Below the pieces are notes generated by a model. It worked only from the letters and a program-made list of their open reading frames with translations. It did not search any database and was not told the DNA's origin. Position numbers and translations under genes: made by a program. DNA of 64,000 nt from an uncultured Aquimarina sp. GTDB lineage: Bacteria > Bacteroidota > Bacteroidia > Flavobacteriales > Flavobacteriaceae. The stretch lies in NCBI GenBank assembly GCA_947496355.1, contig CANMCO010000012.1, positions 9,705 to 73,704 on the forward strand. Reading direction: 5' to 3'. Positions 6,012 through 8,363 of the stretch are shown in pieces. Within the stretch, counting starts at the first letter, position 1. Each line of letters begins with the position of its first letter.

Positions 6012-7724
6012 ATGAAAACTCATCAAATTCATCACTCCACGATCCTAATAGGAATCTTTTTGTTATTAATTACTACTACAGGGTACACTCAAAAATTTAT
6101 TATTCCGGATTCATTACAGGAAAAAACAATTGACGATATTGAGGAGCTAATTCGTAAATATTCTAGTGATTCAATTAAAGTAGTTTTTTTTTCAAATACG
6201 TTACTAGCAAAAGCCAAACAAGAGTTTGACACATTAGGGTTAGCAAAAGGATATTTTCAAGTCTCTTTTAATGATTTAAAAAATTTACCCAAGCGTATTG
6301 CCTATTTAGATAGTTCCATAGCCGTTAGTAATACCTTAAGCAGTAAAACATACCCTGTACTTTCTTATATCAACAGAGCAGGAACCTATAAACAAAGTGG
6401 AAATTATAATAAAGCATTAGATGATTATCTTATTGCTTTAAGTCTAACTGATAAAGATAATAATAACCTTTACTATGATATAAAACATAATATAGGAATA
6501 CTAAAACTTGAAATCGGAGAATACAAAGAGGCCAAAGATATATTTATAGATGTATTAGCATATGAAGATGAAAATAATATAAACGGAAGTGAGCATTTGA
6601 CAACCGTTTTAGGACTAACAAACGCTTATAGAAATCTCAATCAAATAGATTCTGCATCATACTACACTAAAGCAGGAATCAAAGAATCGATAAGAGATAG
6701 CCTTAATATTTATCATCTATTTGTTCTAACCGAAGGAATCAATTTATATAGCAGTAAGCAATACAAAGCATCATTTGACAGCATCAATAAATCTATATCT
6801 TTTATTGAAAAATATGAGTCTCATAATATGGGGGTTATAGTCGACGGGTATTTACATTTAAGCAAAATTTATAAAGAGCAAGGTGATACAGAAATGTCAC
6901 TGAAATCTTTACGTAAAATTGATTGGTATTATGAGAACACCAACTACAGATCGATAGAAATGCGAAAGGGCTATGAGTTATTAATTGATCATTATAAATC
7001 GATTGATGACAAAAACAAACAATTGTACTATATCAACAAGTTATTTGATGTGGATAGTACGTTGAATATTAATTATAAAAACTTAAATAAAAAGATCACC
7101 AAAGAATATGATACTCCGCAGTTATTAGAAGAAAAACAAAACCTCATTACCGTTTTAGAACAAAAAGAAAAAACTGCTACCATAAAATTTAGTATTGCAG
7201 TACTCATAGTCATTATTCTGATCATTTTTTTTACAGGTGTTTACTATAAGAATTTACAATACAAGAAGCGGTATAAAGAAATCATGCATCCCAAAAACGA
7301 AAAGGAGATTATAGACAACCCTGTTTCGATTAAAAACGCATCTGATCCAAAAACTATAGAAATACCCGATGATATTGTTACTGGTATTTTAGAAAGACTG
7401 ACCCTTTTCGAAGAAAAAAAAGGTTTTTTATCTCGCAATATTACCATTGCCTCTTTGGCAAAAAAATTAAATACGAATTCTAAATACTTATCCAAAATAA
7501 TTAATATATATAAACAAAAAAGATTTAGTCTATATATTAATCACTTAAGGGTAACATATGTGATCGATAAACTTAAAGAAGATCCAAAATTTCGGTTATA
7601 TAGTATCAAAGCAATTGCTCGAGAAATAGGGTATAATAATGATCGGGCTTTCTCCAAAGCTTTTTATCAAAAGACAGGAGTTTACCCTTCGTACTTCATC
7701 AAACAACTAGAAAAAGAAAAATAA
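6012..7724 (+). CDS. TPR-repeat, single-pass transmembrane, AraC-type HTH regulator (copy 1)
   Basis: N-terminal hydrophobic signal, TPR-like helices (SGNYNKALDDYLIAL, GEYKEAKDIF), TM IKFSIAVLIVIILIIFFTGVYY, AraC HTHs IASLAKKLNTNSKYLSKIIN and SIKAIAREIGYN..AFSKAF...TGVYPSYF. Confidence 0.88.
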   Translation: MKTHQIHHSTILIGIFLLLITTTGYTQKFIIPDSLQEKTIDDIEELIRKYSSDSIKVVFFSNTLLAKAKQEFDTLGLAKGYFQVSFNDLKNLPKRIAYLDSSIAVSNTLSSKTYPVLSYINRAGTYKQSGNYNKALDDYLIALSLTDKDNNNLYYDIKHNIGILKLEIGEYKEAKDIFIDVLAYEDENNINGSEHLTTVLGLTNAYRNLNQIDSASYYTKAGIKESIRDSLNIYHLFVLTEGINLYSSKQYKASFDSINKSISFIEKYESHNMGVIVDGYLHLSKIYKEQGDTEMSLKSLRKIDWYYENTNYRSIEMRKGYELLIDHYKSIDDKNKQLYYINKLFDVDSTLNINYKNLNKKITKEYDTPQLLEEKQNLITVLEQKEKTATIKFSIAVLIVIILIIFFTGVYYKNLQYKKRYKEIMHPKNEKEIIDNPVSIKNASDPKTIEIPDDIVTGILERLTLFEEKKGFLSRNITIASLAKKLNTNSKYLSKIINIYKQKRFSLYINHLRVTYVIDKLKEDPKFRLYSIKAIAREIGYNNDRAFSKAFYQKTGVYPSYFIKQLEKEK

Positions 7725-7753
7725 TTAACTATTTGTTTTACAGTAATCTGCAG

Positions 7754-7776
7754 GTGCCTTTTCTCGGAAAAGGCAC
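7754..7776. promoter_or_regulatory. Palindromic candidate operator (core TTTTC-N3-GAAAA)
   Basis: gtgccttttc-tcg-gaaaaggcac perfect 10-bp inverted repeat with no U-tract; same core at 23241-23253. Confidence 0.55.
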
Positions 7777-7817
7777 TATCACTTTTCTGGCATTTACATT
7801 TCTATACGTGTAATCCT

Positions 7818-7825
7818 TATATTTG
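7818..7825 (+). promoter_or_regulatory. Bacteroidota -7 promoter box for the peptide pair
   Basis: TATATTTG matches TAnnTTTG, 22 nt before the ATG at 7848. Confidence 0.6.
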
Positions 7826-7847
7826 TTCTGGAAAAAAAGTAAAATTC

Positions 7848-8090
7848 ATGGAAAACAAAAAAAGCAAAAAGCTTAGTTTACAGAAAATGAAAATTGCGCA
7901 GCTAAATCGAAACAGATTCTCTGCGATAAAAGGTGGAACTGAAATACATATAGACTTTTCAAATACTGATTGTCATACCGATACGTGTCCAGATCCAGAC
8001 CCACTTTCAAATGATTGTGCAAGTGAAGGAAAATATGGTTGTTCTGGTGGTTGTAGAACAAATAGGAGATTTTGTGGGGGACAACTTTAG
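7848..8090 (+). CDS. Small leader-core peptide (RiPP/class I lanthipeptide-like precursor), 80 aa
   Basis: Leader KKLSLQKMKIAQLN...IKGG, core rich in Ser/Thr with 6 Cys. Confidence 0.7.
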   Translation: MENKKSKKLSLQKMKIAQLNRNRFSAIKGGTEIHIDFSNTDCHTDTCPDPDPLSNDCASEGKYGCSGGCRTNRRFCGGQL

Positions 8091-8144
8091 TAAGAATTTA
8101 GCCAACCAGATCATTGCATTGATAATAGGAATAAAACATAAATT

Positions 8145-8363
8145 ATGAAAAACAAAAAAGGGAAAAAGCTTAGTTTACAGAAAATGAAAATAGCACAGCT
8201 AAATCGAAATAGCTTTTCTGCGATAAAAGGAGGAACCGAATTACCAATAAACTTTTCAAATACCGATTGTCATACAGATACTTGTCCAGATCAGACTACA
8301 ACTACTACAATAGGCTCTAACGTTTGCAGAACAAATGAAAGATTTTGTGGTGAACAACTTTAA
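8145..8363 (+). CDS. Small leader-core peptide, tandem paralog of 7848-8090, 72 aa
   Basis: Near-identical leader, shared SNTDCHTDTCPD and CRTNxRFCGxQL; 4 Cys. Confidence 0.7.
   Translation: MKNKKGKKLSLQKMKIAQLNRNSFSAIKGGTELPINFSNTDCHTDTCPDQTTTTTIGSNVCRTNERFCGEQL

Follow-up and report, generated by a model that had tools for sequence, protein, structure and literature searches.

Here we describe a gene cassette that occurs twice in a 64-kb stretch of the genome of an uncultured Aquimarina (contig C12, positions 9705-73704; hereafter the window, to which all coordinates without a contig prefix refer). In each copy, the gene for a predicted membrane-anchored regulator with a tetratricopeptide repeat (TPR) domain is followed on the plus strand by a palindrome, a predicted promoter and two genes for short peptides with leaders of the double-glycine (GG) type. 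We show that cassettes of this kind make up a real and widespread family in which receptor and peptide are paired beyond chance. The data also suggest a role for these regulators in the expression of peptides that the ribosome makes and that are modified after translation (RiPPs). The genome (5.03 Mb, 33.8% GC) is closest to those of Aquimarina species, among them A. algiphila at 76% protein identity. It was compared with 76 related loci from public genomes, mainly Aquimarina (703 kb, 94 receptor open reading frames, ORFs), with a family-level sample of 301 Flavobacteriaceae genomes, one per genus, and with a phylum-level sample of 401 Bacteroidota genomes.

Architecture of the two cassettes

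The first regulator, R1 (6012-7724, plus strand, 570 aa), is a one-component membrane protein according to its ORF, its Pfam matches and an AlphaFold2 model built on an alignment of 63 homologues (mean pLDDT, predicted local distance difference test, 86.9). The model starts with a hydrophobic helix that serves as signal or anchor (residues 1-24, helix 2-24) and continues with an all-helical TPR solenoid of 16 helices (33-330), one continuous helix that forms a stalk and the transmembrane (TM) segment (334-425, hydrophobic stretch ~404-424), a disordered linker (429-447) and an AraC-type DNA-binding domain (453-569). The hydrophobic segment FSIAVLIVIILIIFFTGVYY makes up the last turns of helix 334-425 and is followed by KNLQYKKRYK. 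Because of the positive-inside rule, given an N-terminal anchor and a second TM segment with a Lys/Arg cluster behind it, the TPR domain is expected to be extracytoplasmic and the helix-turn-helix (HTH) domain cytoplasmic, and R1 is predicted to be a single-pass, membrane-anchored AraC-type factor whose TPR domain faces the periplasm. Pfam assigns TPR_2 (2.7e-7), TPR_12, HTH_18 (4.6e-10, over the cut-off, residues 482-564) and HTH_AraC (2e-5), and profile matches in the PDB include ToxT and other AraC domains. R1 shares with the AraC/XylS family a C-terminal domain of ~100 aa with two HTH motifs and, by prediction, with ToxR/CadC-type proteins a single TM segment between a periplasmic sensor and a cytoplasmic DNA-binding domain. 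The second regulator, R2 (21479-23197, plus strand, 572 aa), has the same layout by ORF and Pfam analysis and is 37% identical to R1; altogether the genome encodes 12 full-length receptor paralogues with 29-55% identity.

Downstream of R1, peptide 1 (7848-8090, plus strand, 80 aa) consists of a leader of 30 residues (KKLSLQKMKIAQL...IKGG) and a 50-aa core with six Cys that ends in CRTNRRFCGGQL; orthologues are found in related loci L010-L014 and L024. Peptide 2 (8145-8363, plus strand, 72 aa) is its tandem duplicate (repeat D4: 183 nt, 83% identical), with four Cys in the core and CRTNERFCGEQL at the C-terminal end. Having no -7 box of its own, it is probably co-transcribed with peptide 1, and a 10-bp hairpin at 8405-8430 (plus strand, ATCCCCAACT-caaaac-AGTTGGGGAT), read from the sequence while a consensus terminator scan was silent, is the likely end of the peptide transcript. 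Behind R2, the leader of peptide 3 (23476-23655, plus strand, 59 aa) ends in QAG and its core carries two Cys and the C-terminal motif DFTENGTLIGPGFI; peptide 4 (23675-23875, plus strand, 66 aa) has zero Cys in its core and has in common with peptide 3 a C-terminal DFTENGTLTVPGLY motif (repeat D7). Ser and Thr are numerous in peptides 1-3, alongside their six, four and two Cys.

The leaders resemble those of lanthipeptide precursors. Three of the four window peptides reach the 22-bit cut-off of NF038153, the NCBIfam model for the 'class I lanthipeptide' leader (peptides 1, 2 and 4 with 24.0, 24.9 and 22.8 bits), and peptide 3 falls under it with 17.3 bits. The lanthipeptide leader motif LxLxKx5L followed by Gly-Gly is present as KLSLQKMKIAQL...IKGG; Walker et al. 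(2020, doi 10.1101/2020.03.13.990614) described an LxLxKx5L...GG motif in those class I LanAs of Bacteroidetes that have C39 exporters. As a census tool the leader model is unreliable, since NCBIfam is silent on genuine LanAs linked to a biosynthetic gene cluster (C12:119186-120034); it is equally silent on three minus-strand micro-peptides of the window.

A preliminary description of the window, made from its letters alone, had proposed just this layout, namely a receptor with an N-terminal signal, a TPR array, one TM helix and an AraC HTH, two leader-GG peptides 3' of it, and a second copy at 21479-23875 with a divergent receptor, all of which is borne out by ORFs, Pfam, the structural model and, for peptides 1 and 2, NF038153. 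The separate peptide promoter that it postulated stands as a prediction, a TAnnTTTG-type box whose spacing to the palindrome is conserved across loci.

A conserved palindrome is phased with the peptide promoter

Between R1 and peptide 1, the palindrome GGTGCCTTTTC-TCG-GAAAAGGCACT (7753-7777, centre 7765), a predicted operator, is centred 53 nt from a predicted -7 box TATATTTG (7818-7825, plus strand), which is located 23 nt 5' of the peptide 1 start codon. Copy 2 repeats this spacing exactly: the palindrome TCCGTTTTC-CCT-GAAAACAGG (23236-23258, centre 23247) is again centred 53 nt from a predicted box TATATTTG (23300-23307, plus strand), here 176 nt 5' of the ATG of peptide 3, and a terminator-like hairpin TTGTTAGC..GCTAACAA (23204-23221) is distinct from it. 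Both boxes, and hence the predicted promoters, fit the Bacteroidota -7 consensus TAnnTTTG.

The same elements recur across the family. TTC-N2-4-GAA is found in 70 of 75 receptor-peptide spacers, compared with 11% of shuffled spacers, and is usually extended to a palindrome of 20-24 bp with the consensus GTCTGnTTTC-N2/3-GAAAnCAGAC. In 49 of the 75 spacers the centre of the palindrome lies 52-55 nt upstream of a TAnnTTTG-like box, as against 0.3% of shuffles, and this fixed phasing places it near -64, the position of a class-I activator. The combination of palindrome and strict -7 box is rare, with only four sites in the 5.03-Mb genome; three precede GG-type peptide genes, two of the four being those of the window cassettes and one preceding a GG-type peptide gene in a cluster with an exporter of the C39-peptidase type. 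The palindrome is most likely the operator of the receptor, and we regard it as highly probable, from spacing and conservation, that the receptor directly controls the neighbouring peptide promoter. A residue in the recognition helix of the second HTH (FS-K-xF versus Q/S/N/T) tracks the type of operator arm (GTCTG... versus AAATTC...), which is suggestive as a clue to specificity and confounded by phylogeny. Outside the R1 locus, one family operator palindrome reads CGAAATTC-N2-GAATTTCG and is non-cognate to R1.

Operator-like sequences are also seen in other positions: the half-sites of a cassette at C1:660728 recur near an operon of HlyD and a C39-peptidase transporter (C1:660478) and between two LanC genes (C12:117491), neither copy having a -7 box at the canonical distance.

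Receptor and peptide genes are paired across the Flavobacteriales

Within the genome itself, nine of the 12 receptor paralogues are followed by one or two same-strand KLSL...GG peptides, and one further receptor lies at a contig end. Of the 94 receptor ORFs in the related loci, 65 have a match to a leader hidden Markov model (HMM; threshold at least 13 bits) that starts 78-336 nt (median 133) past the stop codon on the same strand, a number that rises to 69 once four clear sub-threshold cases are counted; conversely, 72 of the 77 leader matches in these 703 kb are situated directly 3' of a receptor. Other genera of the Flavobacteriaceae (about half of 28 that were sampled) have the pairing too, as does a second Flavobacteriales family. 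The genome-wide adjacency count that the preliminary description had called for thus comes out well beyond chance, while its attribution of the family to Bacteroidota as a whole was too broad, full-length receptor matches in the phylum-level sample being limited to Flavobacteriales.

Full-text searches of the literature yielded no description of the unit of regulator, peptide and operator; a survey of Bacteroidales RiPPs only mentions TPR and HTH genes in some clusters (PMC10352776). The regulator family of Flavobacteriales RiPP and GG-peptide loci is, apparently, previously undescribed.

The cassettes are linked to LanB dehydratases and C39 exporters

The one split LanB of the genome is encoded at C12:112955-116084 (LanB_N at C12:113841-116084, LanB_C beside it), in a region (C12:112955-120034) that additionally holds two LanCs and three precursors; the genome has two further LanCs. 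It also encodes four C39-peptidase ATP-binding cassette (ABC) transporters (PCATs), each partnered by HlyD, and receptor-peptide cassettes share a locus with two of the four. The two elements of a GG-leader circuit, a double-glycine leader and a C39-peptidase ABC exporter, are both present. LanB and LanC genes, absent from the window, are present in trans in this genome and in cis in other genera.

Among the 301 Flavobacteriaceae genomes, 65 are positive for the receptor family, 89 for PCAT, 21 for LanC and 27 for LanB_N. The presence of the receptor is associated with that of PCAT (odds ratio 5.1, p=3e-8), and 22 of the 27 LanB-positive genomes have the receptor family. Where the best receptor locus of a genome is peptide-linked, LanB_N is found in 13/13 genomes (9% background) and PCAT likewise in 13/13 (30% background), whereas in the 17 genomes whose best receptor locus is peptide-less the counts are six for PCAT and four for LanB. 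In at least nine of the genera sampled, LanB and receptor genes are 1-3 kb apart, and in the one in which gene order was checked (G112) LanB_N, LanB_C, receptor, a 57-aa precursor and an S8 peptidase are tightly packed on the same strand. Contig C17 of the Aquimarina genome carries a receptor, two peptides, an S9 prolyl oligopeptidase and a LanC. Where such a peptidase gene comes after a peptide gene, the two overlap or are 18-43 nt apart, which implies a single transcript. Within 4 kb in the 76 related loci, LanB occurs in 12, PCAT in 5 and S8/S9 peptidases in 22, with none of these in 42.

The cores of the family have a median length of 34 aa, are hydrophilic and are rich in Asp, Thr, Gly, Asn, Pro, Cys and Ser; 58 of 73 carry a net negative charge and 71 of 73 contain at least one Cys. 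A C-terminal [RK][ST]x3-6C motif, represented in the window by CRTNRRFC, is found in 28/73 cores compared with 6.5 +/- 2.4 in shuffles. The closest non-orthologous relatives of R1 (L015-L022, 53-57% identity) are linked to LanB, and their peptides carry CRSxxRxxC as a common motif. We consider it rather more probable than otherwise, from leaders and co-occurrence, that the peptides are LanB/PCAT substrates. The regulation of orphan RiPP precursors, which had been put forward at the outset as the alternative to a quorum-sensing-like family, fits better, in view of the LanA-type leaders, the position of the receptor between split LanB and precursor in other genera, and the 13/13 genomes with both LanB and a C39 exporter. 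The window cassettes are best read as satellite units, comprising only receptor, operator and precursors, of an ancestral RiPP cluster.

Two observations concern loci with additional genes. At L049, L057, L077 and L100, and at L036, L065, L079 and L089-L111, the gene for a lipoprotein-type S8 subtilase or an S9 prolyl oligopeptidase follows the receptor directly or stands 18-43 nt behind the peptide, which suggests either a second, LanP-like step of processing or a secreted peptidase under the control of the receptor. Locus L002 (C9:96664-109012), a complete GG-peptide locus, holds five KLSL-leader peptides, one NGAG-leader peptide, HlyD, PCAT and two receptor-peptide cassettes; the NGAG-leader gene is preceded by a double palindrome and a strict -7 box, the operators of both cassettes contain the half-site CGAAATTC, and by analogy the locus looks like a Blp-type regulon.

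A proposed autoinduction circuit and its alternatives

From the observed gene content, architecture, adjacency, cis-element spacing and co-occurrence we infer a circuit of DNA binding, activation, processing in trans and ligand sensing. R1, probably as a dimer, would bind the palindrome 53 nt 5' of the -7 box (~-64 from the start site) and from there activate the two-gene peptide transcript (7848-8363). The peptides would be dehydrated, and perhaps cyclised, in trans by the split LanB at C12:112955-116084 together with the LanCs, whereupon one of the four C39-peptidase ABC transporters, with its HlyD partner, would cleave the modified precursors behind GG and export them. The mature cognate peptide would be the most likely input of the TPR domain, making each cassette a one-component positive-feedback (autoinduction) loop. 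An ancestral cluster would have comprised split LanB, receptor, precursor and S8/S9 peptidase with a PCAT nearby, from which the window cassettes could derive as stripped-down satellites. As a whole, a membrane-bound AraC-type activator of RiPP precursors that are modified in trans, autoinduced by the cognate peptide, is the best explanation available to us, although its chance of being correct in every part is somewhat below even.

The nature of the ligand is the most tentative element. In Foldseek searches the nearest folds to the TPR domain are LGN/Pins, Rap with its pheromone and NprR-NprX (TMt 0.5-0.65), and hmmsearch profile matches include RapJ (3e-8), with RapJ and RapF together at 1e-7 to 1e-8. 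The cores evolve fastest: mean pairwise identity rises from 16% in the cores through 36% in the sensor and 42% in the leader to 58% in the HTH. Core similarity tracks sensor similarity when HTH similarity is controlled for (partial Mantel r=0.31, p=5e-4; reverse test r=0.04, p=0.11). The cognate peptide is a plausible ligand because of its 1:1 linkage to the receptor, the regulated promoter on the peptide gene, a TPR fold like that of peptide-binding proteins, this ordering of rates and the Mantel result; that a receptor's own peptide binds its TPR domain is a possibility we rate at slightly under even. In its fullest form, in which each TPR-TM-AraC protein, as a one-component receptor, senses its own LanB-modified and exported peptide outside the cytoplasm and one genome maintains a dozen orthogonal channels with an operator each, the proposal is more speculative still.

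Several findings weigh against this circuit. By its score the R1 palindrome is at the same time a candidate intrinsic terminator (11-bp stem, T-rich tail), and it may additionally terminate R1 transcription; a palindrome of 22 bp is unlike the classic asymmetric site of monomeric AraC/MarA-type domains; and paralogue groups resemble one another in their operator consensus, which makes cross-talk possible. The 64-kb window contains no LanB, LanC or PCAT, the cassettes having as neighbours an RHS/M23 toxin, an ankyrin protein, a class V aminotransferase and Mfd, and the nearest LanB is ~97 kb off on the same contig. LanC is present in just 7/13 of the peptide-linked genomes, and peptide 4, being devoid of Cys, is unable to form lanthionine. 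As for the input, the similarity of the TPR domain to Rap (4gyo, 8rst) and NprR (4gpk; TMt 0.59-0.65) is generic, with LGN/Pins, O-GlcNAc transferase (OGT) and designed TPRs equal or better, and is no greater than that to LGN, OGT or kinesin light chain. The receptor-peptide co-phylogeny that the preliminary description had suggested as a check was positive in the partial Mantel test and is non-decisive, as such a signal is partly expected from shared ancestry alone. Finally, ~25-30% of receptors have no neighbouring peptide and 43 receptor-positive genomes of the 301 have no LanB, from which it follows that the family has other targets too. A general need of the peptides for LanC rings, considered separately, was rejected on the comparison of LanC (7/13) with LanB_N (13/13) in the peptide-linked genomes.

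The alternative that survives best retains the wiring and changes the input: the TPR domain would respond to the peptide of a competitor, to a cue from the envelope or from a protein, or to an oligopeptide derived from nutrients, and the cassette peptides would be effectors, bacteriocin-like or other, and not signals. TPR domains bind many protein and peptide partners, twelve sensors each with a different peptide would suit competition sensing, and the peptide-less receptors, some of which are followed directly by S8 or S9 peptidase genes, point the same way, as do the 43 LanB-less genomes. The strict 1:1 linkage and the very fast joint divergence of sensor and core speak against it, however, the mostly anionic and hydrophilic cores (58/73 net negative) are unlike typical membrane-active bacteriocins, and autoinducer loops usually have just this arrangement, with the receptor-controlled promoter immediately at the peptide gene. 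We consider sensing of a non-self cue unlikely, though a serious contender.

Less probable again is a pure quorum-sensing cassette, in which unmodified GG-leader pheromones would be exported by PCATs and sensed outside the cell in the manner of ComC/BlpC, their likeness to lanthipeptide leaders reflecting the shared exporter only. It would account for the Cys-less peptide 4, for the PCATs in all 13 peptide-linked genomes when only seven have LanC, and for an operator of the type belonging to the C9 receptors that precedes a different GG-type peptide gene in a PCAT/HlyD cluster without modification genes (C9:99158-99444), a Blp/Com-like arrangement. This reading is difficult to reconcile with the presence of LanB in every peptide-linked genome against its 9% background and its proximity to the receptor in at least nine genera, with a leader motif that is the one tied to Bacteroidota LanB clusters, or with Ser/Thr-rich cores of which 71/73 contain Cys and in which [RK][ST]x3-6C is enriched (28/73 versus 6.5 in shuffles), and we regard it as improbable. 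It is very improbable indeed that the adjacency has no direct regulatory meaning, the palindrome being the terminator of a receptor gene whose product controls distant genes, since beyond the terminator-like call at R1 the palindromes of the family mostly combine AT-rich sequence with a conserved TTC/GAA core and are not arbitrary GC stems, their centres are locked 53-54.5 nt from the -7 box despite unrelated flanking sequence, copy 2 has its separate terminator-like hairpin, and the element is also found before a peptide gene with no receptor upstream of it (C9:99158); on core, phasing and separate hairpin together, a palindrome that is solely a terminator was rejected.

Relationship to known systems

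By analogy, the closest functional counterparts of the proposed autoinduction circuit are NisRK/SpaRK and Com/Blp, and the closest architectural ones are ToxR/CadC-type proteins. As with NisRK (nisin) and SpaRK (subtilin), a cluster-encoded regulator would drive the precursor promoter, and a NisP-like extracytoplasmic S8 peptidase belongs to the cluster in related loci; export of the mature peptide, its sensing outside the cytoplasm and positive feedback would be further likenesses only if the proposal holds. Unlike these systems, a single polypeptide of TPR sensor, TM segment and AraC domain here replaces histidine kinase and response regulator, with no phosphorelay, the leaders are of the GG type and would be cut by PCAT, and there are many satellite receptor-precursor units per genome. 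ComC/ComAB/ComDE and BlpC/BlpAB/BlpRH likewise combine a GG-leader peptide, a C39-peptidase ABC exporter and a membrane receptor with the pheromone gene adjoining the receptor gene, and their regulons can take in further GG peptides and the exporter. Their receptor, however, is a polytopic histidine kinase, in place of which we find a one-component AraC-type factor with a TPR ectodomain and, by Pfam, a single protein with no kinase or receiver domain; furthermore, in a Gram-negative host export needs an HlyD partner, and the peptides are linked to LanB dehydratases.

The preliminary description had also drawn a parallel with the RRNPP regulators (Rap, Rgg, NprR, PlcR, PrgX), in which a TPR-type superhelical sensor is similarly encoded beside its cognate peptide gene. 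That kinship does not extend beyond generic TPR similarity: RRNPP proteins are cytoplasmic, depend on Opp import of short peptides and have an N-terminal XRE-type HTH or a phosphatase domain, whereas here the TPR domain is predicted to be extracytoplasmic and the DNA-binding domain is C-terminal and AraC-type. On this topology and this output domain, membership in RRNPP was rejected. In ToxR, TcpP and CadC, too, the periplasmic sensor is joined to the cytoplasmic DNA-binding domain directly, through a single TM segment, and DNA is bound at the membrane, but these proteins have an N-terminal OmpR-type winged helix and a C-terminal periplasmic domain, and the present family has the reverse order, which requires a signal or anchor, an AraC-type DNA-binding domain and a TPR solenoid as sensor. 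The prochlorosins (ProcM) offer a parallel for one set of modification enzymes, here a single split LanB, in a genome with more than a dozen hypervariable precursors that have a conserved leader and are scattered over several loci; the present peptides differ in belonging to class I (LanB/LanC) and not class II, and in having their own membrane regulator and operator at each satellite locus.

Cell-cell signalling by peptides is regarded as a Gram-positive trait, and we know of no peptide autoinducer circuit in Bacteroidota. If self-peptide sensing proves true, the cassette would represent the first peptide autoinducer system of this phylum and a one-protein counterpart of NisRK/ComDE, and with one receptor, one site of 23 bp and one or two peptides it is a compact and testable signalling candidate. 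Even with another input, the family would be a dedicated regulator, with its operator, of Flavobacteriales split-LanB RiPP clusters, would account for many 'orphan' precursor genes missed by genome-mining tools, and would provide a handle to switch on silent RiPP clusters of marine flavobacteria, for example through an engineered receptor or operator. The twelve diverged receptor-peptide pairs of a single genome are, in addition, a natural set for studying the evolution of sensor-ligand specificity.

Neighbouring features

Convergent with the peptide genes of copy 1 is the gene for a small HTH_11-like protein (8476-8751, minus strand, 91 aa; Pfam HTH_11 3.7e-5). Homologues are encoded within 4 kb in 20 of the 76 related loci, on the strand opposite the receptors, and in the Aquimarina genome at C1:655931, 656511 and 662860, directly after a PCAT operon; the protein may be a second regulator of receptor-peptide loci. 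A 44-nt direct repeat (98% identical; 5879-5922 and 18928-18971) flanks a 13-kb block that contains R1, its two peptides, the small HTH gene, a lipoprotein and two RHS-family genes, with no recombinase seen inside. The repeat may represent an att-like scar left by the insertion of an island, or a promoter region that was duplicated.

Divergent from R2, three ORFs of 46-52 aa (20369-21185, minus strand) encode micro-peptides with a different double-glycine leader (MLANILNLEGV...NGG) and Cys-rich cores, and have a common upstream repeat of 54-58 nt (D6, D9). Two large RHS-family proteins are encoded at 9542-18479 on the minus strand. One of them, of 1794 aa, combines DUF6443, RHS repeats, MopE-like metal-binding motifs and a C-terminal M23 peptidase with six tandem 141-nt repeats (13075-14038); the 211-aa lipoprotein encoded next to it (8923-9558) may be an immunity protein. 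Just 5' of the R1 cassette, an operon at 2149-5379 (plus strand) encodes two coiled-coil proteins, a Ras/Roc-like small GTPase (Pfam Ras 1e-31) and a soluble hybrid histidine kinase. The window includes another AraC-type regulator, of 397 aa (32798-33991, minus strand), with a C-terminal HTH_18 and an architecture other than that of R1; an HTH of this type occurs in more than 30 proteins of the genome.

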